From the NCBI GenBank assembly GCA_016935485.1, contig JAFGQW010000094.1:1-55812 (forward strand): a DNA stretch of 55,812 nucleotides, written 5' to 3'. The translations under genes and the position numbers were made by a program. Origin of the DNA: Planctomycetota bacterium (GTDB taxonomy: Bacteria; Planctomycetota; JAFGQW01). Under the pieces are notes generated by a model. That model was not told where the DNA came from and searched no databases. It worked only from the letters and a program-made list of their open reading frames with translations. This document shows positions 32,653 through 54,730 of this stretch, piece by piece (position 1 is the first letter of the stretch; each line of letters starts with the position of its first letter).

Positions 32653-33260
32653 CTACTCGAACACCAGCACGATCGGTCGGGTCACGACGCCGATTCCGCT
32701 CGGGCTCGCGGCGTCGAGCGTGACGGCCGCGGCCCACAGGCGCAGGCCGGTCAGCTTCCCGAGCGACGACAGGTCGAGCGTGGCCGAGGCGCGGGCGGCG
32801 GCGCTCAGGGTGCCGATGTTTCCCTTGAGGAACGCGGTCAGCACGCCGCGGAGGCTGCCGAAGAACACCGTGTCCGGGGTCAGCTGGATCACGCGCGTGT
32901 CGACCGGGATACCCGGCCGGAAACCGGAGGCGGACAGCCCGAGCGCGAAGAACCGGCCGGCCTGTCCGGGCACATGGACGTCGAGGGCGTAGACGTTCGG
33001 CGCGGTGCGGCGGCTGACGAGGTTGCGCTCGGCGTAGAAGCAGGCGCCGGTGCGGGTGACGCCGGCGTGCGTCGTGATGGTCTGGCCGGTGATGTCGATG
33101 CGGTTGGTGACGGCCGCGCCGACCACGATCTCGCCGGTGCCCGACCAGCGGTCAAACGCGATGGCGTTGGCGTTGCCGGAGTTCGGGGTGACGGTCGTGT
33201 AGGTGTTGGTGGCCTGGTCGATGCGGTAGACGGTGCCGCTGGCGCCGGCGCCGATGAGGA
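32653..33260 (-). pseudogene. 3' half of a secreted-type protein carrying the shared C-terminal domain; 5' end lost
   Basis: Beta-rich segment followed by GIPVDTRVIQLTPD...GTLSAAARASATL...GLRLWAAAVTL...PSGI; no signal peptide; upstream in-frame sequence is unrelated. Boundary approximate. Confidence 0.6.
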
Positions 33261-33399
33261 GGCGTTCCGGCGCACGCTGCGCGAGTTCGGCTACCTCCTG
33301 GCGGGGGAGGAAGTCCGGCCCGCGCGCACCGGCCGGGCGCGGCCCGCCGGAGCCGCAGGTTCCTCCCACGGTTGAGGGCCCATCTCGCAGCTCCGGATG

Positions 33400-33528
33400 C
33401 GTCCCCTGGATCCGCAGCACGGTTCCCAGGTAGCTGTGGGAGCGCTGGTCGAAGCTCCGGGTCAGCCACATGCGCGGCTGGACCGACAGCAGGTCGCCCC
33501 CTCACCGGAGCTTCGCGTCGTCTCTCAT
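33400..33528 (-). pseudogene. Gene remnant with in-frame TGA at codon 9
   Basis: ATG 33528 overlaps the upstream stop (ATGA): MRDDAKLR*GGDLLSVQPRMWLTRSFDQRSHSYLGTVLRIQG. Confidence 0.5.
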
Positions 33529-34850
33529 GACCGCCGCCTCCGTTGCGCCGCGCGATCCCAGCGCTTTCTCGCCCGGTCCCGGAACGACGGCTCCTTCGTC
33601 ATTCGCCCCCGGTCGAGACGCTCGAAGCCCGGCATGAAGCTGCTCTTCCGGCCGTGCTCCTCCCGAATCTCCGCGGCCAGGGCATTCCATTCCCGGTCGC
33701 GTCCCTCCTTGAGCAGGATCTTCCGGGCCGTCTCGAGGTTGCCGAGGGCCGCGCCGTAGTACTTGCTCTTCTTCGCCTCGACGAGCCTGAGCGCCATGGC
33801 GATGTGGAGCTTGGCGGCGAGCAGGGGGTGCGACTTCGCGAGCTTCTTCGCCGCCGGGTCCGTCGTGTAGTGGCTCAGGGCCACGAGCTTGGCGCGGGGC
33901 GTCTGCTCCACGACCTCCGCCAGGCGCTCCCATTCCTTCGTCTTCACGAGGAAGTCGATCCGGGAAGAGAGGTCGGCACCGTCGAGCGCGGCGAGCGCCT
34001 TGGTGTGCCATGCGGCCCGCTCGCCCTTGGGGACGAACTTCATCAGCTCCTCGTAGGAGTAGATCGACGGTCGCCGCCGGTAGTCCTCCCAGGCGGAGGC
34101 GAGGGCGTCGCCGCCCCTGCCGAGCTTCTTCAGGATCTGTCGCTTCAGGTCGGGGAGATGCCAGGCGGATCGGTTCGGCCAGCGGTCCTGCTGCTCCAGC
34201 TCCAAGCCGCGTTCGACCCAGGTGAGGGCGTCCTCGGGCCGCCGCCGCCTGAGGCACATCTCGGCGAGCGTCTCGCAATCCGCTGGCGCCAGGTCGTCGT
34301 CTTTCTCGCAGAGCGCGCGGTAGGCATCGACCTCCCGCCGCTTCTGGTGGATCGTCTTCAGGACCTCGACCTTGCGGCGATGAGCGTAGCTTTCCTTCCC
34401 GCCGTCGCCGGACCGGTCCCGCACCGCGCGCTCGAATGCGCCGAGCCCCTTGCGGTCCAGGACCTTGACGGCCTCTTTCTCCAAACCGTGGCAATAGGCG
34501 TAGTCGTCGTTCTCCATCCACGAGATCAGCATACCGGCCGTCTCTTCCGGCTCCGCCCCGGCCGCCTGTCGCGCCCGGATCCAGTCGCAGAAGAGCCTCT
34601 CCACGAACTGACCGAAGCTCCCGCTGGAGTCGTCGATCTCCGCCGATTTCTCGTAGCATCCGGCGATGAACATCTCCAGGAGCGCCACGGCACGTGCCGC
34701 ATCTCCCTTCTTGATCAGAGGTGCGATCCGCGTCCGCACCGCCTCGACCTGCTCGACGAAACCCCAGCTCTCGCGGTACCCGACGAACGCGCCGGGCGAC
34801 AGCGCGTCCTCGATGGCGTGTTCCAGTTCATCCCCTCGTCTCCTGGCCAT
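33525..34850 (-). CDS. Hypothetical helical-repeat protein (DUF6880 / SWIM-associated-like)
   Basis: IDDSSG motif, TPR-like EDALTWVERGL, C-terminal KSKYY...W...IREEHGRKSSF; SD AGGAG. Confidence 0.75.
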   Translation of the reverse strand: MARRRGDELEHAIEDALSPGAFVGYRESWGFVEQVEAVRTRIAPLIKKGDAARAVALLEMFIAGCYEKSAEIDDSSGSFGQFVERLFCDWIRARQAAGAEPEETAGMLISWMENDDYAYCHGLEKEAVKVLDRKGLGAFERAVRDRSGDGGKESYAHRRKVEVLKTIHQKRREVDAYRALCEKDDDLAPADCETLAEMCLRRRRPEDALTWVERGLELEQQDRWPNRSAWHLPDLKRQILKKLGRGGDALASAWEDYRRRPSIYSYEELMKFVPKGERAAWHTKALAALDGADLSSRIDFLVKTKEWERLAEVVEQTPRAKLVALSHYTTDPAAKKLAKSHPLLAAKLHIAMALRLVEAKKSKYYGAALGNLETARKILLKEGRDREWNALAAEIREEHGRKSSFMPGFERLDRGRMTKEPSFRDRARKRWDRAAQRRRRS

Positions 34851-35477
34851 GGCTACTCCTGGTGAATGTTCCCACCTGCCTCCGCGGTGCCGTACCTGCG
34901 CCCCGAGTTCGTGGGCTTGCGCGTGACCGTGATCTTCGGTAGGCCCGCCCGCGGCTGTCTAGACAATAAGCCCCGAGTTTCTTCGCACCGCGAGAGGAAA
35001 CCCGAAGCTTCTGCGAGCACGGCAGTTATACTCGCCACGACTTCGCGCCACACAGAACCGCGTCGGCCATCGGGTGCTCCCTTCTTTCTTCCTCTTCTTC
35101 TCTTCTTCAGAAGCTGAGAGCTGACAGCTGATGGCTGTGGGCTGCGGGCGAAGCCCGCGCTACGTTACGCGATCGGGACCGGGAAAGCCAGGCAGGGCGG
35201 CTTTCCCCTTCAAGACGAGGACCACGAGCCCGGCGCCTTTCATCGGCCTTCGCGGCCCTGACCCGAGAGAGCGCCTCGGCGACCGGAGGGAAGAAGGTGG
35301 CAATCGCCTGAACGACTTCCACTGGGGCGGCCGGCGCGTTGTCTAGCCGCCCCTTCCGCAGGAACCCTCTCCGCTGGGCCATCTTCGCCGCATCGCTGGC
35401 GGATTCGTCCGTCACAGGCCGCGCCCCATCGCATCGAACGTGCGGGAGGTTTGCGAGCCGGGAAACGCGTCGCTCTG

Positions 35478-35768
35478 CTACGAAGGCGAACGGCGCGCTC
35501 GGCTGAGCCGGGCGAGCTGGTCCCAATCGCCGGCGATGAGCGCATCCTTCTTGGCGCGGCTCCATCGTTTGGGCTGGCGCTCCCGCCGGACGGCGGCGGA
35601 TCGGGTAGGGAGGGACTCGGTGTACACGAGCTTGACGGGTCGGCGGGAGCAGGTGTGCTTGGCCCCACGGCCGTCATTGTGCGCGGCCTCCCGGCCCGCG
35701 AGGTCCTGGGTGCTGCCGATGTAGTAGGTTCCGTCGGCGCAGCGGAGGATGTAGATGTGAAAGGACAT
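35478..35768 (-). CDS. Small GIY-YIG nuclease (UPF0213/YhbQ-like)
   Basis: HIYILRCADGTYYIGST...HNDGRGAKHT..RRPVKLVY.E...ERQPKRWSRAKK. Confidence 0.88.
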   Translation of the reverse strand: MSFHIYILRCADGTYYIGSTQDLAGREAAHNDGRGAKHTCSRRPVKLVYTESLPTRSAAVRRERQPKRWSRAKKDALIAGDWDQLARLSRARRSPS

Positions 35769-35826
35769 TGGGCTCCACGGAGAATGTTGGATCGAGGTAC
35801 AACGCTTCCGTCGGACTGGGGTTTCG

Positions 35827-36329: not shown

Positions 36330-36363
36330 TTTCCTGCATTCTTGGCGCCGGTCCAGGGGAGCC

Positions 36364-38933: not shown

Positions 38934-39226
38934 GATCTCTCCCGTCTGGAAGGCACCGGCCCGGGTCGCTCCGGATCCGGTCCACCGTCGAACTGGCCTC
39001 GGACCAAGCGATTCGGGGAGAATCTACCCGAGGGCGCCGGGGGGCGCAAGGCGCAAGGCCGCCCGAGCCAGGCTGGGCGCGCTCGGCCGGGCGGCGCCCG
39101 ACGCCGGCAAACCGCATGTCCTGCGCCGCCGCGGTTCGCTATACTGGCCGGCGCCATGAACGTGCGCCGCTGTCCGCACCGCGCCCGGGCGAGGCGGGCC
39201 CGCTTCCCGCGGGAGCGCTGGATCCC

Positions 39227-40189
39227 ATGAGGGAGGATCCCGCGCTCGCGGTCACGGGCCTGGAGAAGCGCTACCGGGCGACGCCCGTGGTCGCCGCGCT
39301 GGACTTCACGCTCGAGCGGGGCGAGATCCTGGGCCTGATCGGGCCGAACGGCGCCGGCAAGACCACGACGCTGCGCATGCTGACCGGCTTCGTAGCGCCG
39401 ACGCGCGGCCGCATCGAGGTGCTGGGGCGCGACCGGAGGACCGAGGGGCTCGCCGCCAATCGGCAGATCGGTTACCTGCCCGAGAACGCGCCGCTCTACG
39501 CCGAGCTGCGGGTGGGGGAGTACCTGTACCTTCGCGCCCGCCTGAAAGGCCTCGACCGGCGCGCGGGCCGCACGCGTGTCGCGGCCGTCCTGGACGCGCT
39601 CGATCTCGCGCCGGCGGCCCGACGCCTCATCGGGCAGCTCTCGAAGGGCTACCGCCAGCGCGTCGGCCTCGCCGCAGCGATCCTCCACGAGCCGGCGGTG
39701 CTGATCCTGGACGAGCCGACCATCGGCCTCGACCCCACCCAGAGCCGCCAGTTCCGGGAGCTCGTCCTCGCGCTCAAGGGGCGCCACTCGATCCTGATCT
39801 CGAGCCACATTCTCATCGAGATCGAGAAGGCGTGCGATCGCGTGCTCCTGCTCCACCGCGGCCGGCGCCTGGCGCTGGCCGCCCCCGCGCGCCTGCTCGA
39901 GCTGGAGGGGAGCGTCGGCTCCGTGGTCCTCGAGGCCGCCGGCGCGCCGGAGGCGACCCACGCCGCGCTCTCCGGGCTGGTCGGGCTGGGCGAGATCCGG
40001 CGGGAGGAGACCGGCGATCCGGCCTGGAGTCGGTTCGTCGTGCGCACTGCCGGCGCGCCGGCGCCGCTCGAGAGCATCGGCCGGGCGCTCTGCGCGGCGG
40101 GCATCCCGGTCCGCGAGCTGCGGAGCGAGGGCATGGACCTCGAGACGATCTACCACCGCCGACTGGAAGAGGAGGCCGCCGGGCCATGA
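39227..40189 (+). CDS. ABC transporter ATP-binding protein (GldA-like)
   Basis: GPNGAGKTT, IGYLPENAPLY, LSKGYRQRVGLA, LDEPT.GLDP. Confidence 0.9.
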   Translation: MREDPALAVTGLEKRYRATPVVAALDFTLERGEILGLIGPNGAGKTTTLRMLTGFVAPTRGRIEVLGRDRRTEGLAANRQIGYLPENAPLYAELRVGEYLYLRARLKGLDRRAGRTRVAAVLDALDLAPAARRLIGQLSKGYRQRVGLAAAILHEPAVLILDEPTIGLDPTQSRQFRELVLALKGRHSILISSHILIEIEKACDRVLLLHRGRRLALAAPARLLELEGSVGSVVLEAAGAPEATHAALSGLVGLGEIRREETGDPAWSRFVVRTAGAPAPLESIGRALCAAGIPVRELRSEGMDLETIYHRRLEEEAAGP

Positions 40190-40923: not shown

Positions 40924-42626
40924 GGCCGATGCCCAGCGCACAACGACCGGCGGCCGGATGGGTGCGCGGCGCGCTTCGCGTACTCCTGGCCGGCGTCGCC
41001 GGAATCGCGCTCGCGAGCGGCCTGGTCTGGAGAAGCATCGCGGGGCCGGACGCACTCGCCGACGGGCTCCTCGGCGCCGGGCTGGCCGCGCTCGTGCTCG
41101 CGGCGGCGCTCTTCGCGTGGACCGGGCTGAGGACGGCGCACGGCCGGGCCGTCGCGAGCGCCGTGCTGGCCGTCGGGCTCGCGGTCGCCGCCTTCGCGCT
41201 GCTCTCCTACATCAACTACGCCGCCGTCCGCGGAGAGGTCGATCTCACGCGCGCGCGGCGGTTTACGCTCGCACCCGCCACCCGGGCGGTGCTCGCCGAC
41301 CTGACGGCGCCGGTGGAAGTGACGGTGCTGCTGACGCCCGAGGACCTCCCGGAGGATCGGCTCCGGCTCGACGAGGAGCTCATCGATCTGGTGAGCCGTT
41401 TCGAGGAGCTCGCCGGCGGCCGGCTCACCCGGCGTATCTGGGGCGCGGTGGAGGAGGAGCGCCGGATTCTCGACTACCTCCGCGAGCTGGGCCTCGAGGG
41501 GGCGGCGATCTACCCGCCGGTGGTCATCGTGCGGTCGGGCCGCGCCCGCAAGGTCCTCGAGGAACCGGCGTTCCTCGAGCGCGGCGCCGGCGGCGAGCTC
41601 CTGTTCCGCGGCGAGGAGGCGCTCACCAGCGCGCTCGTGGAAGTGACCGAGCCGTTCCGGCGCGTGGTCCACTTCACCCAGGGCCACGGCGAGGGCGAGA
41701 TCGATCTGTTCACGCCGCGGGGCTTCCCCCAGGTGAGAGCCGCGCTGGAGCAGCAGAACCTGGAGACCCGCACGGTCCATCTCGAGCGGGAAGAAGCGGT
41801 CCCGGAGGACTGCGCCCTGCTGGTGGTGCTCGGGCCGCGCCGGGACTTCACGCCGGTGGAGCTCGCGGCCATCGACGCGTATCTCGGCCGCGGCGGCAGG
41901 GTGCTGGTGCTGCTCGATTCCCGCGCCGAGATCGACGCCGAGCTCGCGCGCCTCGAGGGGCTGCTCGAGCGCTGGGCCGTCGCGATGCTCCCGGGCATGG
42001 TGTTCGACCGGGCGCTCAGCTACCGGGGCGATCCCTCCTGGGTGTGGGTGTCAAGCTACGGCGGCCACGAGATCGTGCACTCGCTCGAAGGCAGCCCCTG
42101 CGTGTTCCTGCTGCCCCGCGGGATGCACCTTGCGGAGGACCGGCGCGCGCCCGACGGCCGCACGCTGCGGGTGGCGCCCCTCCTTGCCTCCTCGGCGGAT
42201 TCGTGGTGCGAGGCCGACCCCGAGCCGCCGGCGCCCGGCGCGGCCTTCGGCCCCGGCCCCGGCGACGAGAAGGGCCCGATCCCCCTCGGGGCGGCCGTCT
42301 GGCAGGAAGGCATGCGCGGCGACGGCCTGCCGCAGGCGCGGCTCGTCGTGCTGGGCGACGCCTCCTTTCTCCGCACGCAGAACCTCGAGCGGTTCGACTT
42401 CAGCGCGCCCACGCACCTCGACCTCCTGAAGAACGCCGCCAACTGGCTCCTCGAGCGCGACCGCCTGATCTCGGTCACTCCGCGGCGCTACCACGGCGTG
42501 CGCCGCCTCACCCACCTGGACATCTCCGACCGCGAGATCCGCGCCATCATGTGGGGCGGCATGATGGGGCTGCCGACGCTCGTGCTGATCGCCGGACTGC
42601 TGGTCTGGCTGTGGCGGAGGCGCTGA
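40920..42626 (+). CDS. GldG-like ABC auxiliary protein
   Basis: DLTRARRFTL, GEEALTSAL, FTQGHGE, LVVLGDASF, NAANWL, C-terminal TM ending WRRR. Confidence 0.85.
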   Translation: MRPMPSAQRPAAGWVRGALRVLLAGVAGIALASGLVWRSIAGPDALADGLLGAGLAALVLAAALFAWTGLRTAHGRAVASAVLAVGLAVAAFALLSYINYAAVRGEVDLTRARRFTLAPATRAVLADLTAPVEVTVLLTPEDLPEDRLRLDEELIDLVSRFEELAGGRLTRRIWGAVEEERRILDYLRELGLEGAAIYPPVVIVRSGRARKVLEEPAFLERGAGGELLFRGEEALTSALVEVTEPFRRVVHFTQGHGEGEIDLFTPRGFPQVRAALEQQNLETRTVHLEREEAVPEDCALLVVLGPRRDFTPVELAAIDAYLGRGGRVLVLLDSRAEIDAELARLEGLLERWAVAMLPGMVFDRALSYRGDPSWVWVSSYGGHEIVHSLEGSPCVFLLPRGMHLAEDRRAPDGRTLRVAPLLASSADSWCEADPEPPAPGAAFGPGPGDEKGPIPLGAAVWQEGMRGDGLPQARLVVLGDASFLRTQNLERFDFSAPTHLDLLKNAANWLLERDRLISVTPRRYHGVRRLTHLDISDREIRAIMWGGMMGLPTLVLIAGLLVWLWRRR

Positions 42627-42634
42627 CGAGAGCG

Positions 42635-43969
42635 ATGGGGCGAACAACGTGGGTCCTGGCGGTCCTGGTGGCGGCGCTCGGGGCGGTGGCGCTCTGGGTG
42701 CACAGCCGCGATCCGCTCTCGCCGGCGCGCGCGCGGCGACCGCTCGACGTCGACGTGGAGGCGGTGACGGGCCTCGAGATCGAGGGGCCTCACGGGCGGA
42801 TCGCGCTGCGCCGCGGGGCGGACGGCTGGACGGTCGAGGCGCCGTTTCGCTACAAGGCGGACCTCTACAAGGTGGCCGGGCTCGTCGCCTACCTCGCTTC
42901 GGTCCGGACGGAGCAGCCGCTTGTGCGCGGTGAGACGCCCCCGGAAGCGCTCGCCCGTGCCGGGCTGTCGAGTCCGGACAGTGCGCGCTTCACGCTGGTG
43001 CTCGGCGCGCGGACCGTGTGCGGCGTGGTGGGGCGGCCGCCGCGCATCGGCGACCAGGCGTTCATGGCGGTGGAGGGGCGCCGGGGGATCGTCGCTCTGG
43101 CGGCGCGCGCCGCGGCGGTGCTCTTCGAGCCGCCCGACGCCTTCCGGGATCCGCGGGCACTCCCACTCGAGCTGCCGGATCTGATCGCGGTCGCTCTCGA
43201 GACAGAGGGCCGGAGGATCGCGCTCGAGCAGCGCGCGCCGGACCACTGGGTCCTGGTCGAGCCGGCCCACGGACCGGTGCTTCCCGCCGCCCGGGAGCGG
43301 CTCTGGCGGGCGCTCGAGCGGTTGCGCGCGGTCCGCTGGCTCGGCGCGGTCCCCGATCCAGCCCGCCTCGGGCTCGACCCGCCCCGGCGGCGCCTGCATG
43401 CCGTCGCGAGTCTCGAAGAGGGGACGCGAGAGGAGACCCTGTGGCTCGGCGAGTCCACTGACGGCGCCACCGTTGTGGCCCGACGCGCCGCCATGGACGC
43501 GGTCTTCACCGTGGACCGGGAGCCCGTCGAGGCTCTGTTCGCGCTCGGCCCGGAGGAGCTCCGGGACCAGGTTGTCGTTCGCATCCGCCCCGGCGCGCTC
43601 GCGGCGGTCGAGGTGCAGGCGCCCGGACGGACGGCCGTCGCCTACGCGTGGGACGGCGCGGAGTGGCGCCGTCCGGACGGGACCGCCGTGCCGGATAGCG
43701 AGGCGGAGGCGCTCGGCCGGCTGCTCGGTATGCTGGCGAACTACCGGCTGGAGCGGTTCTCCGAGGCGAGCCCGGAGGACGGCGCTCCGGGCCTGCGGCC
43801 GCCGGCCCTCGTGTTGCGTTTCCGTTTCCACGGCCGGCGCGGCACGGAGACCGTTGCCGTCGGGCGCGAAGCGGAGGGCTGGATCCGGCTGCGGCGGGAC
43901 GAGGAGTCGATTGCCGCCGCCATCCCGGCCGACGTGGCCGGACCGGCACTGGAACCGTTCCTGCGCTGA
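42635..43969 (+). CDS. DUF4340-like membrane-anchored repeat protein
   Basis: N-terminal TM; three repeats with W....P and GL..P motifs (FRDPR, LRDQ); typical position after GldG. Confidence 0.75.
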   Translation: MGRTTWVLAVLVAALGAVALWVHSRDPLSPARARRPLDVDVEAVTGLEIEGPHGRIALRRGADGWTVEAPFRYKADLYKVAGLVAYLASVRTEQPLVRGETPPEALARAGLSSPDSARFTLVLGARTVCGVVGRPPRIGDQAFMAVEGRRGIVALAARAAAVLFEPPDAFRDPRALPLELPDLIAVALETEGRRIALEQRAPDHWVLVEPAHGPVLPAARERLWRALERLRAVRWLGAVPDPARLGLDPPRRRLHAVASLEEGTREETLWLGESTDGATVVARRAAMDAVFTVDREPVEALFALGPEELRDQVVVRIRPGALAAVEVQAPGRTAVAYAWDGAEWRRPDGTAVPDSEAEALGRLLGMLANYRLERFSEASPEDGAPGLRPPALVLRFRFHGRRGTETVAVGREAEGWIRLRRDEESIAAAIPADVAGPALEPFLR

Positions 43970-44111: not shown

Positions 44112-46649
44112 TCACCGCGTGATCGTGAAGGACGCGGTGTTCGAGATCGACTTGAGCCCGAACGGAGCCGGCGCGTAGAGCGTGACGAACGCCGAGTGAA
44201 TCCGGATGCCGACGAGGCCCTGGTCGTTCGGGATCGCAAGCGAGGCCTGCCCCTGGGCGACGCCGGACAACACGCCCGCGTAGCCGGTGAAGATCTGCGG
44301 CAGCATGCCGCCGGTGGAGATCACCAGCAGCGTGTCCGGCGACAGTCCGAGACTCCGCGGTCCGATCGGGATCGGGCCGGTGCCGAGCGACGAGCCGACC
44401 TGGTAGGCGAGGCCGGCGTCGCCGGTGGCGGTGAGTGCAAGCGTGACCCGGTTTCCCGGCCGCGGGGCACCGCTTGAGGTGAGGTTCACGAAGGCGACCT
44501 TCGAGACCCAGGCGTCGGTGATCCCGTTGAAGGTGAGATCCGGTCCGCCGGTGACCGGGAACAGGTTCGTGGTCTCGTAGCTGTCCGTATCGCCGGAGAC
44601 GTACGCATTCCCGGCGGCGTCCACGGCGATCGACCAGGCCGAATCGTAGTCGGTGCCGCCGATGTAACCGCAGTAATCCAGCGCCGTGCCGGCGGCGTTC
44701 ACTCGCGCGACGAACCCATCGTTCCAGCCGTTATAGGTGAGATCCGGCCCGACCCGCACCGGGAAGCTGTCCGTGGTCTCGTTGCTCTCGGTGCCACCGC
44801 ACACGTAGGCGTTGCCCTGGCCATCCACGCCGACACCGCCCCAGCCGTCGTCCCACTGCGCACCGCCGATGTAGCCGCAGTAGACGAGCGCGGTGCCGAG
44901 CGCGTTCACCTTGGCCACGAACGCGTCCGAGATCGCCGTCGTGTCGTTGTAGGTGAGATCCGGCCCGACCCGTACCGGGAAGCTCTGCTCGGTGCTGTCG
45001 GTGCTCCCGCAGACGTACGCGCAGCCGGTGGCGTCCACCGCGATGCCACCCGTGCTTTCCCAGCCGGTGCCGCCGAGGTAGCCGCAGTAGTCGAGCGCCG
45101 TGCCCACCGCATTCACCTTGGCCACGAAGACATCCGTCCCGCCGTTGAAGGCGAGGTCGGGACCGACGAGCACCGGGAACTTGTCCGTGGTCTCGTTGCT
45201 GCTGGTCTCGCCACACACGTAGGCGTTGCCCTGAGCGTCCACCGCGACGCGGCCCCAGCCGCCGTCGTACTGCGCACCGCCGATGTAGCCACAGTAGTCG
45301 AGCGCCGTGCCGGCCGTATTCACCTTGGCCACGAACGCATCCGAGGAAGAGGTGTCGTTGAAGGTAAGGTCGGGACCGACCCGCACGGGAAACGTGGTCT
45401 GGTCGCTCTGCGTGTCGCCGACCACGTAGGCATTGCCCGCCGCATCCACAGCGACGCCCCAGGCATAGTCGTCATTGATGCCGCCGAGGTAGCCGCAGTA
45501 ATCGAGCCCGGTGCCAGCGGCGTTCACCTTCGCGATGAAACCGTCGCCGCCGCCCGAGGCGGTGCCGTTGTACGTGAGGTCCGGCCCAACCTTCACCGGG
45601 AAGCCTTCCGAGACCGCGTCGCTCTCGGTGTAGCCCACGACGTACGCCTGGCCCTGGGCGTCGACGGCCACGCCGGCGCCGTACTCGTAGTCGGTGCCAC
45701 CGAGGTAGCCGCAGTAGACGAGCTGGCCGTTCCGGTCGACCTTCGCGACGTAGGCGTCCCCGTTGCCGTGGTAGGTGAGATCGGGTCCCACCGCCGCCGG
45801 GAAGGACGGCGCCGCGCTGTCGACCTCGCCGGTCACGTACACGTTGCCCTGCGCGTCCACGGCGGTGCCGTAGTTGTCGTCGTAGTCGTTGCCGCCGAGG
45901 TAGCCGCAGTAGACCAGCAGCGCCGGGTCGAGCACCAGCGTCCGGGTGGGGTCGTAGGCGCCGAGACGGAACCCATAGGTCACCGCGCCGGCCTCCGCGA
46001 ACGCTGGGCCGACGTCGTAGGCCATCGCCACGGATGCGCGCCGGCCGTCCACCTCCTGCCACGCGACTGGCGGCGCGTCCTCGAAGCCGCCCGCCGGCGT
46101 CTCGACCCGGAGCGCGCCGGCCGGCGTCACGAAGGCCCGCGTCAGCCCGCGATAGCGGAGCTGGATCTGCGCCGGGTTGGCGCCGGGCCGCACGACGAAC
46201 TCGTACTTGAGATAGCGGACCGTGCCGCGGTAGACCAGATCGATCCCGGGCCAGAGGTCCTCGTACACGATCTTCGCGAACGCGGGCACGCCGGTTTGCC
46301 AGTCCTTGGGCCGGCCGAGAAAGTAGCTGAAGACGGCGGCCTGACGATTCCGGCCCTCCGGGCGCACGGCGCGCGCGCCGAGAAAGTCGAGCTGGACCGC
46401 CCAGCGCTGCGCCGGAGACTCCAGCGCGACGGTCATGCCCTCTGCGGTGAAGAAGAGGGTGCGGTCCCGGCCCTTCACGTGATAGGCCACGGCGTCCGGG
46501 TAGAGGCCCCGGTTCTCGAGGAAGAGGAGCGGTGCGTCCCGGAATCCGGGGACCACCGCCGTGAGCGCCGCGGACGGCAAGTTCTGTGCGGCAGCGCCGC
46601 TCGCCAGCAGCACGGTGGCGAGGATGAGGGCGAGAACGGATCGACTCAT
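44112..46649 (-). CDS. Secreted SBBP-repeat beta-propeller protein with the shared C-terminal domain
   Basis: Signal peptide (ASGAAA-Q); FLENRG, WPGIDL.Y, YEFVV.PGA.P, LVLDP; seven YCGY(L/I)GG...AVDA.G.AYV repeats. Confidence 0.88.
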   Translation of the reverse strand: MSRSVLALILATVLLASGAAAQNLPSAALTAVVPGFRDAPLLFLENRGLYPDAVAYHVKGRDRTLFFTAEGMTVALESPAQRWAVQLDFLGARAVRPEGRNRQAAVFSYFLGRPKDWQTGVPAFAKIVYEDLWPGIDLVYRGTVRYLKYEFVVRPGANPAQIQLRYRGLTRAFVTPAGALRVETPAGGFEDAPPVAWQEVDGRRASVAMAYDVGPAFAEAGAVTYGFRLGAYDPTRTLVLDPALLVYCGYLGGNDYDDNYGTAVDAQGNVYVTGEVDSAAPSFPAAVGPDLTYHGNGDAYVAKVDRNGQLVYCGYLGGTDYEYGAGVAVDAQGQAYVVGYTESDAVSEGFPVKVGPDLTYNGTASGGGDGFIAKVNAAGTGLDYCGYLGGINDDYAWGVAVDAAGNAYVVGDTQSDQTTFPVRVGPDLTFNDTSSSDAFVAKVNTAGTALDYCGYIGGAQYDGGWGRVAVDAQGNAYVCGETSSNETTDKFPVLVGPDLAFNGGTDVFVAKVNAVGTALDYCGYLGGTGWESTGGIAVDATGCAYVCGSTDSTEQSFPVRVGPDLTYNDTTAISDAFVAKVNALGTALVYCGYIGGAQWDDGWGGVGVDGQGNAYVCGGTESNETTDSFPVRVGPDLTYNGWNDGFVARVNAAGTALDYCGYIGGTDYDSAWSIAVDAAGNAYVSGDTDSYETTNLFPVTGGPDLTFNGITDAWVSKVAFVNLTSSGAPRPGNRVTLALTATGDAGLAYQVGSSLGTGPIPIGPRSLGLSPDTLLVISTGGMLPQIFTGYAGVLSGVAQGQASLAIPNDQGLVGIRIHSAFVTLYAPAPFGLKSISNTASFTITR
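44490..45915 (-). repeat. Seven intragenic tandem repeats of about 190-200 bp (SBBP blades)
   Basis: Recurrent gtagccgcagta on the + strand; YCGY..GG...FPV.VGPDLT.N...D.FVAKVN unit. Confidence 0.8.
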
Positions 46650-46829: not shown

Positions 46830-48209
46830 TCAGCCGTCCTTCGGTCCCGGGGCGCCCTTGTCCCGGAGGAACTTGTACGGATCGAACCAGCCCCTGCAGT
46901 TGGGTGCGTACCCGGCGATCCAGCCCACCTGGTCGCCCATGGGGACGTTGCCCACCGCTACGGTCAGCACCTCGCCGTCGGGCGTCTTCACCTTGAGCCC
47001 TAGCCCCGGAAAGCCGTGCTGGTCCTTCTGGTCGGGCAGGTACACGTAGCCGATGACCGGCGCCTTCACGCGCTTGCCCTTGTAGTCGAAGTTGAGCGCG
47101 GAGCCGTCGCGGTAGATGCCTTTGGGTCGCCGGAAGGGGCTGTCGGCGATGCCGAAGTGGAGATGAGCCCCATAGCCGCCATTCTCGACCGAGCAGGAAA
47201 GCCCGACCGTGGCGATCTTCTGCCCCTTGCTCACGATGTCGCCGGGTTTGACGAGGATATCCCAGCCCAGGTGGCCGTAGAGCGAGCAGAAGTAGTCGCC
47301 GCTCTCGAGGCGGTGCTCGACGAGCACGAGAAAGCCCCAGTTCCCGCCCGCCCCTTGCACCATGCGCACCAGCCCGTCGGCCACGGCGAACACCGAGGCG
47401 CCCTCGCGGAACCAGGCGATGTCCTCGCCCGCGTGCCCGCTCTTGCCCCCGAAGGACTGGCGGGGCAAGCTCATGAAGAGCGAGTCGTGATACCAGGAGA
47501 TGGGCCAGTCGAAGGTCGTGGCCGCGGGATACTCGAGCGTCTTCGCATCGTACTCGTTGAAGCTCGATGGACCCTGCACGGTCCAGGCCCACTCGACGCG
47601 GCGGGCGTCCTCGGGCCCGACGAGCTTCTCCGGCCAGGGCCGGTACGGCCTGGCGGCGCTGCCGACGAGCGCCACCGCCGCCTCGAGGCTCGCCCGCGTG
47701 AACCGGTCCTTCTCGGCGGCAAGCGCCTGCTCCAGCGCGGCCGCATCCCTGCCGATGTGGCCAAGGCAATTGGCGGCCAGCTCGCGGATGCGCGGATTGG
47801 CGTCCTTCAGCCGCTTCACGACGGCCGGCACGACCGTCTCGTCCCCGATCCTCTTCAAAGCGTAGAGGGCGCGCGCCTGGATGGGCCAGTGCTTGGCCTC
47901 GAGGAGCGGCACGAAGACGTGCTTCAGCGCCGGTTCCCGGTAGCGGATGAGATTCTCGATCGCCTGGCCGTGGCCATGCTTCTTCGCGAGCTCGGCGCCG
48001 AGCCTCGGCTGGAGCTCCTCGTCGGCGCGAACGAGCTCCTGGACGAGCGCGTCGATCTTGTCCTGTTGCCGGGCGAACTCGTCCTTGCGCGTCGAGGCAC
48101 CGACGGTCTTGTCGCGGGCCTTGTGCTGCGCAACCGCGGCGCCCGCGAACAGGATCGCGGCGGCGAGAAGCAGGATGGAACAGCGCGCGGGCGTGGGGGG
48201 GATTCGCAT
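46830..48209 (-). CDS. Secreted HEAT-repeat + M23 peptidase protein
   Basis: Signal peptide; HEAT-like ALYALKRIG / LKDANPRIRELAANCLG; HAGED, VFAVADG, SLYGHL, HLHF. Confidence 0.85.
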   Translation of the reverse strand: MRIPPTPARCSILLLAAAILFAGAAVAQHKARDKTVGASTRKDEFARQQDKIDALVQELVRADEELQPRLGAELAKKHGHGQAIENLIRYREPALKHVFVPLLEAKHWPIQARALYALKRIGDETVVPAVVKRLKDANPRIRELAANCLGHIGRDAAALEQALAAEKDRFTRASLEAAVALVGSAARPYRPWPEKLVGPEDARRVEWAWTVQGPSSFNEYDAKTLEYPAATTFDWPISWYHDSLFMSLPRQSFGGKSGHAGEDIAWFREGASVFAVADGLVRMVQGAGGNWGFLVLVEHRLESGDYFCSLYGHLGWDILVKPGDIVSKGQKIATVGLSCSVENGGYGAHLHFGIADSPFRRPKGIYRDGSALNFDYKGKRVKAPVIGYVYLPDQKDQHGFPGLGLKVKTPDGEVLTVAVGNVPMGDQVGWIAGYAPNCRGWFDPYKFLRDKGAPGPKDG

Positions 48210-48548
48210 GGGCTGGCGTGCCTCCGATCTCCTCGGGTCCGGTGAAATGATACGCGACGGGTGGAAGGAACGGTAGCGCCGCGCGGGGGGTCTGGCCAAC
48301 CAGACGCTGCGGTTTTCGAGGGGGGAGGCACTGCCGGCAAGCAGCCCGCACGGCGGCGGCCGGCGCGGAGTGGACCCGCTCTCCGCCGACGGTCCGGCAG
48401 CAGCTCCGACGGCGGCCCGCTGGCGCGGATCCGCCCGTCGGAAGCCCCCGCCATCGCGGCGACCCCGGAGCCGTGCAAGCGCCGCCGCGGTGGGTTCCGC
48501 CGGCGGAGAAGCCCGGCAGTGGCTTTCCGCCGGCGCTCGCTCTCCCCA

Positions 48549-48577
48549 TTGACTGTGAGCTCCGTTCCGGGTACGTT
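48549..48577 (+). promoter_or_regulatory. Sigma70-like promoter of paralog 1
   Basis: TTGACT-17bp-TACGTT. Confidence 0.65.
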
Positions 48578-48784
48578 GACGGTTTGCTGTAAATCCATGC
48601 CGTGCGGGTCCGCCGACCGCGCCCGAGCCCGCCGGCGAGAGAGAGCCTGGAACAGAGCATGCCCTCGAGGCCGGGTAGGTTCCGTCCGGACAACAGCTCG
48701 CACGCTGTTCCGCGCGTGTGTGACGCCGGCGTGAGTGGGTCACGGCCGGGCCTGAAAGGAAGGCGCTGCAGAAGGAGAGCCACC

Positions 48785-49693
48785 ATGCGAACCGCGAGTT
48801 TCCTCGTCGTCCTGGTCCTGCTGGCCGGTCTCGCGACGGCCCAGACCCTGATCCCCATCCCGCCGTTCAACACCACGTACTCGTCGACGATGACGCGTGG
48901 CATGTACTGTCTGGTGCCGATCGATTTCACCGTCGTTGGCCTCCGCGTGCCGGACGAGGCGAAGAACGGCAAGCAGAACGTGTGCCTCTATCAGCACACC
49001 TCCGCGCCGCCGGCCTGGACCGCGACCGTGCCGCTCACCCCGATCTTCTCCAAGTTCGGCGAGCCGAGCGCGAACATCATTCCCTGCTCGTTCCCGTACA
49101 AGAAGGGCGAGTACCTGATCGTGCTGGGGGCGTGCGGCGATGCGGTCCAGCTTCGCAATTCCTACTCGGCGTCGTCGGCGTTTCCGACGACGATCTTCGG
49201 CGCCGCCACGACACTTTATCGTTGCGGCACCCAGAACAACATCACGACTCTGGCTCCGCCGCATCCGATCTGGAGCGAAGCGGCCAGCATCTGCCGTGTC
49301 GAGGTCTACGTGGCCTCCGCGACGATCACCGGCTCCGGCACGGGCGCGCCGGGCACCACGCTCACGTTCCTGCTGTCCGCGGCAGCCGACGGGGGGCTCC
49401 CGTACCAGCTCGGAAGCTCGCTCGGCAACGGCCCGATCCCGATCGACGCCCGGAAGCTCGAGCTGTCCGTGGACAGTCTCCTCACGCTCAGCGTGCTTGG
49501 GCTGGCGCCCGCGGTGTTCCAGAACTACGCCGGCGTTCTCGATGCCCAGGGGGCCGGCAAGGCAGCGCTCCACATCCCGAACCTGCCCGCGCTGAAGGGC
49601 ATCCGGATCTACACGGCGTTCGTCACCCTGCTCGGGACCGCTCCCTCCGGGGTCGCCAGCATCAGCAACACGTTCCTGTTCACGATCCAGTAG
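48785..49693 (+). CDS. Secreted Cys-containing protein, paralog 1 of 5
   Basis: SD AAGGAG; signal peptide LAGLATA-Q; homologous to the next four ORFs. Confidence 0.9.
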   Translation: MRTASFLVVLVLLAGLATAQTLIPIPPFNTTYSSTMTRGMYCLVPIDFTVVGLRVPDEAKNGKQNVCLYQHTSAPPAWTATVPLTPIFSKFGEPSANIIPCSFPYKKGEYLIVLGACGDAVQLRNSYSASSAFPTTIFGAATTLYRCGTQNNITTLAPPHPIWSEAASICRVEVYVASATITGSGTGAPGTTLTFLLSAAADGGLPYQLGSSLGNGPIPIDARKLELSVDSLLTLSVLGLAPAVFQNYAGVLDAQGAGKAALHIPNLPALKGIRIYTAFVTLLGTAPSGVASISNTFLFTIQ

Positions 49694-49851: not shown

Positions 49852-50766
49852 ATGCGTACCGTCGTCGTTCTCGCCAGCATCCTGCTGCTCGCCGGCCTGG
49901 CCGCCGCCCAGACCATGATTCCGATTCCGGGATTCGGCAGCACCTACTCGGCCAGCATGACCCGCGGCTTCTACTGCCAGGCGCCGCTGGATTTCACCGT
50001 CGTCGGGCTTCGCGTGCCGGACGAGTCCAACCACGGGCTGCAGAACGTCTGCCTCTACAACCACACGGCGGCCCCACCGGCGTACTCTGGCACCGTGGCG
50101 CTGACCCCGGTCTTCTCCAAGTTCGGCGAGCCGAGCGCCAACATCATCCCGTGTGCATTTCCGTTCAAGAAGGGCGAGTGGCTGATCGTCATCGGCGCCT
50201 GCGGCAACTCGGGCGGCCTCAAGAACTCCTACGCCTCGCCGGCCGGCGTGTTCGCGAGCAACATCCTGGGCGCGCCGACCTCGCTCTACCGCTGCGGCAT
50301 CCAGTCCAACATCATCACCACCGCGCCGCCGCATCCGGTCTGGAGCGAGAATAACGGCCAGATCTCCCGCGTCGAGGTGTATGTGGCCGCCGCCACCATC
50401 GTCGGTTCGGGTTCCGGCGCGCCCGGCACCACGCTCACGTTCCTGCTGTCCGCGGTCACCGACGGCGGGCTGACCTATCAGGTGGGAAGCTCGCTCGGCA
50501 ATGGCCCCATCCCGATCGACACCCGGAAGCTCGAGCTGTCGGTCGACGGGCTGCTGGTCGCGAGCGTTTCCGGCAATCTGCCGGCGATCTTCCAGGGCTA
50601 CGCCGGCGTTCTCGACGCCAAGGGGGCCGGCAAGGCGGCGCTGAACATCCCGAACTTGCCCGTGCTCAAGGGAACCCGGATCTACACGGCGTTCGTCACC
50701 CTGTCGCAGGTAGCCCCGTCCGGAGTGGCCAGCATCAGCGACACGTTCCTCTTCACGATCCAGTAG
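49852..50766 (+). CDS. Secreted protein, paralog 2 of 5
   Basis: SD AAGGAGG; signal peptide; TRGFYCQAP.DFTVVGLRVPDE; ends FLFTIQ. Confidence 0.9.
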   Translation: MRTVVVLASILLLAGLAAAQTMIPIPGFGSTYSASMTRGFYCQAPLDFTVVGLRVPDESNHGLQNVCLYNHTAAPPAYSGTVALTPVFSKFGEPSANIIPCAFPFKKGEWLIVIGACGNSGGLKNSYASPAGVFASNILGAPTSLYRCGIQSNIITTAPPHPVWSENNGQISRVEVYVAAATIVGSGSGAPGTTLTFLLSAVTDGGLTYQVGSSLGNGPIPIDTRKLELSVDGLLVASVSGNLPAIFQGYAGVLDAKGAGKAALNIPNLPVLKGTRIYTAFVTLSQVAPSGVASISDTFLFTIQ

Positions 50767-50938: not shown

Positions 50939-51853
50939 ATGCGTATTCCCGCCGCGCTCGCCGCCGTCCTGCTGCTCGCCGGTCTGGCCTCCGCCCAGAC
51001 AATGATCCCGATTCCGGCGTTCAACCGCACCTACAGCTACTCCGCGCACACCCGCGGCTTCTACTGCCAGGCGCCGGTGGACTTCACGGTCGTCGGGCTT
51101 CGCGTGCCCGACGAGGCCAACAACGGCCAGCAGAATGTGTGTGTCTACCAGCACACTGCCGCTCCGCTGCCGATCTCGACGGCGGTCCCGCTCACGCCCG
51201 TCTTCTCGAAGTTCGGCGAGCCGAGCAGGAACATCATTCCCTGCTCGATTCCGTACAAGAAGGGCGACTGGCTAATCGTGCTGGGCGCCTGCGGCAACGC
51301 CAGCATGCTCCACAACTCGTACGGCCCACAGGGCTGTTTCCAGAGCAGCATCTTCGGCCAGCCGACCACGATATGCCGCGGCGGCGTCCAGGCGAACATC
51401 GTCAGCACGGCGCCGCCCCATACGGTCTGGAGCGAGAACGCCTTCGAGGTCTGCCGCGTGGAGGTGTACGTCGCCTCCGCCCAGCTCGTCGGCTCGGGTT
51501 CCGGCGCGCCCGGCACCGCGCTGACGTTCACCCTGATGGCCGCCGCGGACGGGGGGCTCCCGTACCAGCTCGGAAGCTCGCTTGGCAACGGCCCGATCCC
51601 GATCGACACCCGCAAGCTCGAGCTCTCCGCCGACGCGCTCCTGGTCGCGAGCGTTTCCGGCAATCTGCCGGCGGTGTTCGAGGGCTACGCCGGCACGCTC
51701 GATGCAAAGGGACTCGGCAACGCCAAGCTCCACATCCCGATGATCCCGGCGCTCAAGGGGCTGAGAATCTACAGCGCATTCGTGACGCTGCGCGGGTCGG
51801 CGCCCTCGGGCATCGCGAGCATCAGCGACACGTTCCTCTTCACCATCCAGTAG
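50939..51853 (+). CDS. Secreted protein, paralog 3 of 5
   Basis: SD GAGGAG; same motifs as the other paralogs. Confidence 0.9.
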   Translation: MRIPAALAAVLLLAGLASAQTMIPIPAFNRTYSYSAHTRGFYCQAPVDFTVVGLRVPDEANNGQQNVCVYQHTAAPLPISTAVPLTPVFSKFGEPSRNIIPCSIPYKKGDWLIVLGACGNASMLHNSYGPQGCFQSSIFGQPTTICRGGVQANIVSTAPPHTVWSENAFEVCRVEVYVASAQLVGSGSGAPGTALTFTLMAAADGGLPYQLGSSLGNGPIPIDTRKLELSADALLVASVSGNLPAVFEGYAGTLDAKGLGNAKLHIPMIPALKGLRIYSAFVTLRGSAPSGIASISDTFLFTIQ

Positions 51854-52040: not shown

Positions 52041-52069
52041 TTGACAGCAGGTGCGGTAGCAGGTACGCT
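52041..52069 (+). promoter_or_regulatory. Sigma70-like promoter of paralog 4
   Basis: TTGACA-17bp-TACGCT. Confidence 0.7.
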
Positions 52070-52262
52070 CGATCTTGTTGTGTTTGAGGAGTCGGCGCGA
52101 GACGGCCGCCGTCGAGGAGTCCGTGCTCGCGCCCGAGAGAGACTGGGTTCCCTTTCGTCCAGGAGATTCCGGTGCCCGGCTCACGCCGCACGTGTGTGCG
52201 GCGCAAGCGGAGATGTGTCGCGGCCGGGGCGCGATCTCGAGGGTAGTTCAAGGAGAGGATTC

Positions 52263-53669
52263 ATGCGCATCGCAGCCGTTCTTGTCACCGTGCTCCTGCT
52301 GGCCGGTCTGGCCGCCGCCCAGGCCATGGTGCCGATCCCCGCGTTCGGCACCACCTACTCGGCCAGCATGACCCGTGGCCTCTACTGCCAGGCGCCGGTG
52401 GACTTCACCGTCGTCGGGCTCCGGGTGCCCGACGAGGCGAACCACGGGCTCCAGAACGTGTGCCTCTACAAGCACACCTCCGCGCCGCCCGCCTACACGG
52501 GCACCGTGCCGCTGACCCCACGGTTTTCCGCCTTCGGCGCACCGAGCGCGACTATCCTCCCGTGCGCGGTCCCGTTCCGCAAGGGCGACTGGATGATGGT
52601 GATCGGCGCGTGCGGCGATGCGAGCGGGCTCAAGAACTCGTACGCCACGCCGCCCGGTGCCTTCGCGACCAGCATCTTCGGCGCCGCGACCACGCTGTAT
52701 CGCTGCGGCATCCAGTCGAACATCATCACCACGCCGCCGCCGCATCCGGTCTGGAGCGAGAATAGTGGCCAGATCTCCCGCGTCGAGGTCTACGTGGTCC
52801 CGGGTTACTACCCGGGCTACCGGATCCCGCTGCCCGCGTTCAGCCGCACGTACTCGTCCACCCAGACCCGCGGGTTCTACTGCCAGGCGCCGCTGCCCTT
52901 CGCCGTCGTCGGTGTCCGAGTGCCCGACGAGTCGAACCACGGTCTGCAGAACGTATGCCTCTACAAGGATGCCTCCGCGCCGCCGGCCTTCTCCAGCACC
53001 GTGCTGCTGACCCCGCAGTTCTCGAAGTTCGGCGAGCCGAGCGCGAACATCATTCCGTGTCTGGTGCCCTACAACCTGGGCGAGTGGATGATCGCGCTGG
53101 GAGCCTGCGGTGACGCGAGCGGGCTCAAGAACTCCTACGGACCCGCGGGCTGCTTTGTGAGCAGCATCCTCGGCGCGCCCACGACGCTCTGCCGCGCCGG
53201 CGTCCAGGCGAACATCGTCACGGCGACACCGCCGCATGCGATCTGGAGCGAGAACGCCTTCGAGGTCAGCCGCGTCGAGGTCTTCGTGTCCGCGGCGGGA
53301 ATCACCGGCTCCGGCACGGGCGGCGTGGGCACCACGATGACGTTCCTGCTTGCCGCCCCGGGCGACAGCGGGCTGCCGTACCAGATGGCGAGCTCCTTCG
53401 GCGAGGGACCCATCCCGATCGACACGCGGCTGCTCGGGCTGTCGTACGATTCGCTGCTGGTGCTGAGCGTGATGAACCTCGCGCCGGGGACGTTCATCAA
53501 TTACTCCGGCGTGCTGAGCCGTTCGGGCACGGCGAAGGCGGGGCTGGCCATCCCGAAGATTCCTTCGCTGATCGGTATCCGCATCTTCACGGCCTATGTG
53601 ACCGTGCTGCCGGCCGCTCCATCCGGCGTGGCGAACATCAGCAACACCTTCCTGTTCACCGTCCAGTAG
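52263..53669 (+). CDS. Secreted protein, paralog 4 of 5, with duplicated N-terminal domain
   Basis: SD AAGGAGAGG; two TRG.YCQAP domains joined by PGYYPGYR; ends FLFTVQ. Confidence 0.9.
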   Translation: MRIAAVLVTVLLLAGLAAAQAMVPIPAFGTTYSASMTRGLYCQAPVDFTVVGLRVPDEANHGLQNVCLYKHTSAPPAYTGTVPLTPRFSAFGAPSATILPCAVPFRKGDWMMVIGACGDASGLKNSYATPPGAFATSIFGAATTLYRCGIQSNIITTPPPHPVWSENSGQISRVEVYVVPGYYPGYRIPLPAFSRTYSSTQTRGFYCQAPLPFAVVGVRVPDESNHGLQNVCLYKDASAPPAFSSTVLLTPQFSKFGEPSANIIPCLVPYNLGEWMIALGACGDASGLKNSYGPAGCFVSSILGAPTTLCRAGVQANIVTATPPHAIWSENAFEVSRVEVFVSAAGITGSGTGGVGTTMTFLLAAPGDSGLPYQMASSFGEGPIPIDTRLLGLSYDSLLVLSVMNLAPGTFINYSGVLSRSGTAKAGLAIPKIPSLIGIRIFTAYVTVLPAAPSGVANISNTFLFTVQ

Positions 53670-53693
53670 CCGGCATCGGCCGCGCTGCTTCCG

Positions 53694-53723
53694 GGCTTCC
53701 CGCCGCCGAGGCGGCGGGAAGCC
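53694..53723 (+). terminator. GC-rich hairpin after paralog 4 (no U-tract)
   Basis: GGCTTCCCGCCGCC-GA-GGCGGCGGGAAGCC; a related GGGCTTCC...GGAAGCCC stem follows paralog 2. Confidence 0.5.
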
Positions 53724-53754
53724 GGACCTTCCCGGACGGGTCCGGAGCGGGGGA

Positions 53755-53783
53755 TTGACTCGCGCCCCGAACGCGGGTAGGCT
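53755..53783 (+). promoter_or_regulatory. Sigma70-like promoter of paralog 5
   Basis: TTGACT-17bp-TAGGCT. Confidence 0.65.
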
Positions 53784-53818
53784 TCGGCCTGGACCGAAGT
53801 GACCCGAGGAGAGGAACC

Positions 53819-54730
53819 ATGCGTATTCTCGCCGCGCTCGCCGCCGTCTCGCTGCTCGCCGGTCTGGCCGCCGCCCAGACGGTGATCCCGATTCCCGCGT
53901 TCAGCCACACCTACCAGGCGAGCCAGACTCGCGGGTTCTACTGCCAGGCGCCGGTGGACTTCACCGTCGTCGGGCTCCGCGTGCCCGACGAGGCCAAGAA
54001 CGGCCAGCAGAACGTGTGCCTCTACAACCACACCTCCGCGCCGCCGGCGTTCTCTGGCACGGTGCCGCTCACGCCACTGTTCTCCAAGTTCGCCGAGCCG
54101 AGCGCGAACATCATCCCCTGCTCGATTCCGTACAAGAAGGGCGACTGGCTGATCGTCATCGGCGCGTGCGGCAACGCGACCATGCTCTACAACTCGTACG
54201 CCGCGCCGGGCTGCTTCCAGAGCAGCATCTTCGGCAATGCGACCACGGTATGCCGCGCCGGCATCCAGGCGAACATTGTCAGCGCCCTGCCGCCGCACGC
54301 GATCTGGAGCGAGAACGCGTTCGAAGTCTGTCGCGTGGAGGTCTACGTCGCCTCCGCCCAGCTCGTCGGCTCCGGTTCCGGCGCGCCCGGCACCACGCTC
54401 ACGTTCACCCTCATGGCCGCCGCCGACGGGGGGCTTCCGTACCAGCTCGGAAGCTCGCTCGGCAACGGCCCGATCCCGATCGACACGCGCAAGCTCGAGC
54501 TCTCCCCCGACGCGCTGCTGGTCGCCAGCGTCTCCGGCAATCTGCCGGCGGTGTTCGAGGGCTATGCGGGGACGCTGGACGCGCAGGGACTCGGCAACGC
54601 CAAGCTCCACCTCCCGATGGTCCCGGCGCTCAAGGGCGTGCGGATCTACAGCGCGTTCGTCACCCTCCGTGGATCGGCGCCGTCGGGGATCGCCAGCGTC
54701 AGCGACACGTTCCTGTTCACGATCCAGTAG
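53819..54730 (+). CDS. Secreted protein, paralog 5 of 5
   Basis: SD GAGGAG; C-terminal half nearly identical to paralog 3. Confidence 0.9.
   Translation: MRILAALAAVSLLAGLAAAQTVIPIPAFSHTYQASQTRGFYCQAPVDFTVVGLRVPDEAKNGQQNVCLYNHTSAPPAFSGTVPLTPLFSKFAEPSANIIPCSIPYKKGDWLIVIGACGNATMLYNSYAAPGCFQSSIFGNATTVCRAGIQANIVSALPPHAIWSENAFEVCRVEVYVASAQLVGSGSGAPGTTLTFTLMAAADGGLPYQLGSSLGNGPIPIDTRKLELSPDALLVASVSGNLPAVFEGYAGTLDAQGLGNAKLHLPMVPALKGVRIYSAFVTLRGSAPSGIASVSDTFLFTIQ

Follow-up and report, generated by a model that had tools for sequence, protein, structure and literature searches.

The stretch of DNA analysed here, called the window, is the whole of contig JAFGQW010000094.1 (55,812 nucleotides, read on the forward strand) from the assembly GCA_016935485.1 of a Planctomycetota bacterium. 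When the translations of its genes are compared, seven proteins turn out to have one terminal module of about 122–125 amino acids (aa) in common, which we call the tag, while the part of each protein outside the tag and the signal peptide is referred to as its cargo. The seven carriers are:

48785..49693, + strand: paralog 1 (302 aa), with a signal peptide, a cargo domain of about 180 aa without family assignment, and the tag at 49316-49690 (E = 1.3e-60 with the profile described below)
49852..50766, + strand: paralog 2 (304 aa), laid out as paralog 1, tag at 50389-50763; the copy used for the structure model
50939..51853, + strand: paralog 3 (304 aa), laid out as paralog 1, tag at 51476-51850
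52263..53669, + strand: paralog 4 (468 aa), with the cargo domain duplicated in tandem and a single tag at the end (53292-53666)
53819..54730, + strand: paralog 5 (303 aa), laid out as paralog 1, tag at 54353-54727
44112..46649, - strand: DUF7948 + SBBP beta-propeller protein (845 aa from the MSRSVLAL start), with a signal peptide and the tag at 44115-44489
32653..33471, - strand: 5'-truncated carrier (272 aa) without a signal peptide, with a divergent tag at 32656-33030

With the paralog 2 copy as reference, the other six tags are 81, 78, 60, 76, 55 and 28% identical to it, 22 columns being invariant, and a Hidden Markov Model (HMM) profile built from the seven copies matches these same copies at E = 1e-47 to 1e-63. 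A preliminary description of the window, made from its letters alone, had placed the same terminal domain on the five paralogs, the SBBP protein and the truncated open reading frame (ORF), and these figures bear it out: as judged from the E-values and from the 188 further ORFs described below, the shared module is not a product of chance. The divergent tag of the ORF at 32653 is backed independently, because its tail aligns with the tail of an unrelated locus, L001 (33% identity, BLASTP E = 3e-14). The six intact carriers all begin with M-(R/K), a hydrophobic stretch and A-x-A/Q, as in Sec signal peptides, and thus conform to the Sec-type export ascribed to them earlier. Such an N-terminus is missing from the ORF at 32653, whose cargo measures about 150 aa, against about 300 aa in its relatives; for these two reasons it is read as a 5'-truncated remnant, so that the label “truncated” is a fair one. 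Also in line with the preliminary description, there are three types of cargo in the window, i.e., the domain of about 180 aa without a Pfam match (paralogs), DUF7948 + SBBP (Pfam E = 2.4e-49 and 8e-21, respectively, in the 44112-46649 protein) and a propeller-like remnant, and the tail of the tag contains neither a transmembrane helix nor a basic stretch, its end being made of a beta-strand plus 0–3 residues, with no hydrophobic helix. The 845-aa form of the DUF7948/SBBP protein is on public record, and lengths similar to that of paralog 4 (448–468 aa) also occur in public data (e.g., P0056, 448 aa, and P0363, 468 aa).

The HMM profile was then used to search the 45,296 six-frame ORFs of the genome to which the window belongs (G000, a 4.89-Mb assembly of 405 contigs, 90% complete, in which the window is contig C109). 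It matches 195 ORFs at E < 1e-5 (201 at E < 1e-3), i.e., 188 beyond the seven seeds, and 168 of 2,802 crude gene calls carry the tag; the figure of 195 is a lower bound on the number of carriers, since some cargo homologs end in versions of the tag that fall below the threshold. For 191 of the 195 ORFs, no more than 19 aa separate the end of the match from the stop codon, the remaining four being two frameshifted fragments, one match that ends early and one true N-terminal copy. The tag never occurs in tandem, nor is there any protein with two copies among these ORFs; adhesin-type immunoglobulin (Ig) domains, for their part, are usually arranged as internal arrays. A hydrophobic N-terminus resembling a signal peptide was recognized in 164 ORFs under a lenient rule and in 136 under a strict one, and the 31 ORFs lacking it under the lenient rule include 17 that are cut by contig ends, most of the others being fragments. 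The class of the window holds three species genomes only, each with at least 150 tag matches. The densest cluster of tag genes that we observed lies on contig C402 (22.5 kb), with at least seven of them bearing different cargo (SBBP, FG-GAP, thioredoxin-like and others). Three tag genes of G000 are broken by an in-frame TAG or by frameshifts (C32:15625-16056, C376:15232-15519 and C196:14496-15689), and may be either pseudogenes or assembly errors.

The cargo parts long enough to be compared (160) fall into 38 unrelated clusters, the largest of which have 41, 25, 13, 9, 9, 7, 6, 5 and 4 members. They include propellers (DUF7948/SBBP, FG-GAP, Kelch and PD40, plus a weak DUF6923 repeat match below the cut-off), right-handed beta-helices (some of them pectate-lyase-like), CBM96, a galactose-binding-like domain and a series of enzymes, i.e., a papain-family C1 peptidase with a lectin domain, M14 and M1 peptidases, a GH38-like protein and a thioredoxin-like protein with a CPYC motif, while many cargo parts have no family match at all. 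Within G000, nearly every homolog of these cargo families bears the tag, and the exceptions are mostly ORFs cut by contig ends. In all six pairs formed by four paralogs, the tags are more similar (76–94% identity) than the cargo (68–79%); tags on cargo without detectable similarity reach 78% identity, and 52 of 159 proteins have their nearest tag on an unrelated cargo. These comparisons show the tag to be a mobile module, exchanged between cargo families. In other phyla, the homologs of the DUF7948/SBBP protein contain, downstream of the propeller and within the C-terminal part of the chain, SLH, dockerin, RTX or plain Ig-like domains; the dockerin example reaches the end of the protein, and the SLH and RTX matches stop 26–75 aa short of it. 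Known anchors thus seem to occupy, in these homologs, the same slot as the tag. When the choice-of-anchor families were compared with the tag, a single sub-threshold match was obtained (choice_anch_Q, 19.5 bits for a cut-off of 25). The family is deployed in the manner of a sorting or anchoring tag.

Beyond its own genome, the tag profile was compared with 1.84 billion cluster representatives (50% identity clusters), of which 2,986 matched at E ≤ 1e-3, 993 at E ≤ 1e-10 and 138 at E ≤ 1e-30. Among the 150 best matches listed, 149 end within six residues of the C-terminus, and the public records name these proteins either “hypothetical” or after their cargo only. The domain is hence not confined to a few genes, and the many terminal matches on proteins with signal peptides that had been anticipated were indeed recovered, both in G000 and in public data, as well as at 28 of the 30 loci sampled in further families of this phylum (see below). 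Of 401 Planctomycetota genomes sampled, 78 are positive, and the tag is all-or-none by family (12/12, 8/8, 8/8 and 2/2 genomes vs. 0/20, 0/23, 0/16 and 0/11); in five genomes of other families, the model trained on G000 finds between 13 and 81 matches each. A narrower alignment, searched against named genomes, returned 30 loci, 24 of them in one metagenome-assembled genome (MAG) labelled Planctomycetota, five in a MAG titled “bacterium” and one on a 3-kb contig of a bin labelled Thermodesulfobacteriota, while a scan of named genomes with a single protein found no related loci. Over the genomes sampled, this distribution shows the tag to be restricted to certain Planctomycetota families.

According to the preliminary description, the domain was always terminal. 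This stands, but the terminus is not always the C-terminus: three proteins carry the tag at their N-terminus. A signal peptide opens two of them, one of which is conserved in a second genus. The latter, L026 (G000 C376:4000-5454), is made of a signal peptide, the tag and about 330 aa of cargo without a Pfam family. Its N-terminal tag is not an assembly artefact, because a full-length ortholog that is 65% identical, L122 (G002:C215:84-1514), exists in the other genus. The two further cases come from 30 loci sampled in five genomes of other families of the phylum, in which the tag is C-terminal in 28 and N-terminal in two, being followed there by a beta-lactamase-family domain or by five TIG domains. 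These N-terminal cases are a better fit to an anchoring or binding module than to an export signal that would have to leave the cell C-terminus first. At the junction between cargo and tag, no conserved residue or linker suggests a cleavage site. Finally, the last residue of the 191 carriers ending with the tag is F or W in only four, the commonest being Q (42), P (31), L (24), R (20) and K (19).

With respect to family identity, the tag has no match in Pfam (E ≤ 0.1) or NCBIfam (E ≤ 1), whether searched within its carriers or as 58 isolated copies; the match to a described Pfam domain that would have refuted the preliminary description thus did not turn up. A profile search of PDB sequences gave a best E of 1.2, and in the ESM Atlas the tag matches unnamed Planctomycetota clusters only. 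Full-text literature searches, which extended to the searchable text of articles, returned no description of the domain. The tag family is thus real, very large and undescribed in Pfam and NCBIfam. Its structure was predicted with AlphaFold2 for the paralog 2 copy, using an alignment of 58 sequences; an earlier model based on seven sequences was poor (predicted local distance difference test, pLDDT, 68) and its structural matches were disregarded. The final model (pLDDT 97.6; predicted template modelling score, pTM, 0.90) is an all-beta sandwich of about ten strands plus one short helix (residues 54–61), and its last strand (residues 120–123) agrees with the beta-strand end proposed in the preliminary description. 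Foldseek retrieved antibody-type domains only (TM-score about 0.5), and the exhaustive structural alignment of VIA-align gave a best Z of 9.0 (root-mean-square deviation of 2.7 Å over 102 residues), with 36 chains at Z ≥ 8. The 50 top matches of either program are Ig V-set, macroglobulin and intimin domains, and no CTD (C-terminal domain) of the T9SS (type IX secretion system) is found among those listed. Since calibration indicates that a common arrangement alone typically yields a best Z of 7 to 8 with VIA-align, the value of 9.0 supports a fold class and nothing more specific, and the tag is, as far as the model goes, a generic Ig-like beta-sandwich.

A beta-sandwich of this size, found at either terminus, might also be a carbohydrate-binding module (CBM) directed at an external substrate rather than at the envelope of the cell itself. 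Some of the cargo is related to glycans (CBM96, the GH38-like protein, the pectate-lyase-like beta-helices and the galactose-binding-like domain), and the Ig-like N-domains of GH66 dextranases are among the VIA-align neighbours, at a Z of about 8 that lies within the noise band. Yet most of the cargo is not glycoside hydrolase but propellers, peptidases and a thioredoxin-like protein, no CBM family matches the tag, and it would be unusual for a single substrate-binding module to sit on about 6% of the crude gene calls. We therefore regard a CBM as very improbable.

At face value, the deployment of the tag recalls the T9SS CTDs of Bacteroidota, which are likewise single C-terminal Ig-like sandwiches on many unrelated Sec-exported proteins, encoded by dispersed genes that number from tens to hundreds per genome and are restricted to certain lineages. 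Solved CTDs of this system are seven-stranded; PorU cleaves the CTD, and the cargo is attached to A-LPS. Were the tag an export signal of this kind, a dedicated outer-membrane translocon would recognize it and a sortase-like cleavage would follow, the cargo being either released or covalently attached to the surface. Such a signal would account for one C-terminal Ig-like domain on each of up to about 200 diverse Sec-exported proteins from dispersed loci. The T9SS of Bacteroidota typically handles cargo such as SBBP, FG-GAP and Kelch propellers, beta-helices and peptidases. Moreover, a T9SS-like CTD system has been suggested for Akkermansia, another bacterium of the Planctomycetes–Verrucomicrobia–Chlamydiae (PVC) assemblage: as described in an article in Nat Microbiol 2026 (PMC13524802), the last domain of the Akkermansia muciniphila sulfatase Amuc0953 is Ig-like and resembles T9SS CTDs, and its authors suggest that it mediates surface localisation via an unknown system. 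One protein is concerned there, vs. about 200 tagged proteins per genome here, and the profile search of PDB sequences revealed no relation between the tag and Amuc0953 at E up to 10, in a PDB deposit that may not include the last domain. Against an export signal stand the conserved N-terminal placement of the tag behind a signal peptide, the junction without any sign of a cleavage site, and the size of the tag, which with about 122 aa and about ten strands plus a short helix is larger than type A CTDs and has no sequence match to them. The CTD models of type A (TIGR04183/PF18962) and type B (TIGR04131) gave no match genome-wide, nor did SprA, GldL, GldM and PorP in the 90%-complete G000 (PorK, PorN, PorV and PorU were not searched), although the control genomes were equally silent for both sets, so that absence is not proven. 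Likewise, the sole tagged cysteine peptidase, i.e., the C1 peptidase considered as a possible analogue of PorU, was found only in G000 and was discarded. Taken together, these observations make a T9SS-like export signal unlikely.

The preliminary description had further attributed to the tag a machinery of its own, a part of the claim that found no support: there is no recurrent neighbour, no T9SS marker match (with the reservation just made about the controls) and no candidate whose distribution tracks the tag. In a scan of three genes on either side of the 168 tag genes, in which roughly 120 families were tested, none recurs beyond chance, the best being 4/5 (p = 0.006) and 3/3 (p = 0.007), both uncorrected. 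Candidate outer-membrane proteins of G000, chosen by the presence of a signal peptide and a C-terminal aromatic residue, correspond in Pfam to PgaA-like proteins, a TonB-dependent receptor, BamA, TraF_2, porin O/P, DUF3034 and DUF3187, to which are added one protein with only a weak DcaP-like match and one without any match. Co-occurrence was examined over a panel of 24 genomes with the tag and 24 without it, the profiles of which are confounded by phylogeny, as the positive families may be kin. TraF_2 (PF13729) was rejected as a partner because it is present in the own family and in 9/24 negatives but in 0/22 of the other positives, as was the outer-membrane-protein-like L077 (11/24 positives vs. 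5/24 negatives), which is not a clean match. Exosortase (PF09721), with 12/24 positives vs. 8/24 negatives, is neither linked nor complementary to the tag, and it was not found in G000 or G001. Repeat-rich scaffold candidates (UvrA paralogs, a kinase-TPR protein, an alpha-2-macroglobulin and one unassigned beta-helix-like protein) were not compelling either, and no cohesin-like scaffold or ligand was recognized among those of G000. Two of these UvrA-like proteins are very long (L112 and L113, at G000 C167:1-4923 and C391:150-6083, with 1,641 and 1,978 aa, respectively) and have repeated ABC/UvrA domains; a normal UvrA is roughly half their size.

How, then, might such a domain work? The reading that we favour, to which we give about an even chance, is that this undescribed Ig-like sandwich of about 122 aa serves, in one copy per protein and at a terminus, as an address or anchor tag for the cell envelope. 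The carriers would cross the inner membrane by Sec, after which the tag would bind one shared component of the envelope (a glycan, or a protein acting as receptor or scaffold) and so bring a large and varied set of proteins to a common place. We infer that the tag determines localisation, that it does so by binding and not by being threaded through a translocon, and that there is a common partner. The tag would then be position-tolerant, and its logic closer to that of a dockerin or an SLH domain than to that of a T9SS signal, because the N-terminus is tolerated and the junction has neither motif nor linker. A stronger version, in which the tag is the cargo signal of a sorting or surface-display system specific to certain Planctomycetota lineages, with a receptor or translocon of its own and about 5% of the proteome as clients, seems doubtful to us. 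If true, this display system would correspond functionally to the T9SS or to cohesin–dockerin display in a phylum whose envelope biology is poorly understood.

Several observations weigh against an address or anchor tag, and most of them would suit instead a passive structural Ig-like domain (a cap, a spacer or an oligomerisation unit) that was inherited and shuffled without any role in sorting. First, a generic Ig-like fold, with a Z of at most 9.0, says nothing on function. Second, the positions conserved across 58 diverse copies are mostly Gly, Pro and hydrophobic residues, which look structural; there is one invariant Asp just before the short helix, but no conserved polar binding patch is evident from these sequences. 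Third, the 30 residues upstream of the tag are not enriched in G, S or P, which indicates that there is no linker, and the tag could consequently pack against the cargo as a structural part of it. Fourth, the neighbourhood, panel and scaffold searches found no partner. Finally, the distribution by family follows phylogeny and could be the outcome of simple inheritance. However, structural Ig domains are normally internal or in tandem and tied to particular cargo folds, whereas the tag occurs singly and at a terminus on cargo from 38 unrelated clusters, small enzymes included; it is more conserved than the cargo and exchanged between cargo families; and in the internal duplication of paralog 4 the cargo was doubled while the tag was not. 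For these reasons, a purely passive domain appears to us rather unlikely.

Compared with known systems, an envelope address or anchor tag would most resemble dockerins and SLH domains, which are terminal, mostly C-terminal and position-tolerant, and which are the very modules carried by DUF7948/SBBP homologs elsewhere. Both hold a variety of exported proteins, by non-covalent attachment, on a single partner in the envelope (dockerin on cohesin, SLH on the cell wall), and the dockerins of one species are highly similar across unrelated cargo, as are the tags here. In contrast to the helical dockerin (PF00404), with its duplicated Ca-binding segment, and to the helical SLH (PF00395), the tag is all-beta and has no Pfam match to either. 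With PEP-CTERM/exosortase, LPXTG and GlyGly-CTERM signals, it has in common that a C-terminal mark is put on many exported proteins of one genome in a lineage-restricted manner. Signals of the PEP-CTERM type, on which a membrane enzyme acts, consist of a short motif, a transmembrane helix and a basic tail, whereas the tag is a folded domain of 122 aa without a transmembrane helix. Its aromatic end in 4 of 191 carriers and its sandwich fold also set it apart from the C-terminus of outer-membrane barrels and autotransporters. The earlier exclusion of PEP-CTERM, dockerin and autotransporter barrels therefore holds, no match to these families having been obtained.

The placement of proteins in the unusual envelope of Planctomycetota is little understood. 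Should localisation depend on the tag, a large share of the envelope or surface proteins of many uncultured lineages would become predictable with its HMM (about 200 per genome here), and, if the favoured reading is true, a new kind of folded sorting or anchoring module would stand beside T9SS CTDs, dockerins and SLH domains. Even if the tag is purely structural, a very large domain family, with its 2,986 clusters, is missing from Pfam and NCBIfam.

Other genes lie near the carriers. Between the tag genes of the window, an ABC-transporter ATPase (39116-40186, + strand) precedes a protein of 1,003 aa that contains a DUF4340 domain (40958-43966, + strand), a pair which, we presume, may be an accessory ABC system of the GldG type. 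A large ORF with HEAT-like repeats (46830-48743, - strand) separates the SBBP gene from the paralog array; its C-terminal 389 aa have no Pfam match, but HxxxD and HxH motifs seen by eye are reminiscent of M23 peptidases. Elsewhere in G000, next to a tag gene, L068 (C152:1456-6588) is a giant fusion of TPR repeats and a polysaccharide deacetylase with a weak, below-cut-off match to a PgaA-type barrel, and might be a PgaA/PgaB-like exopolysaccharide exporter.

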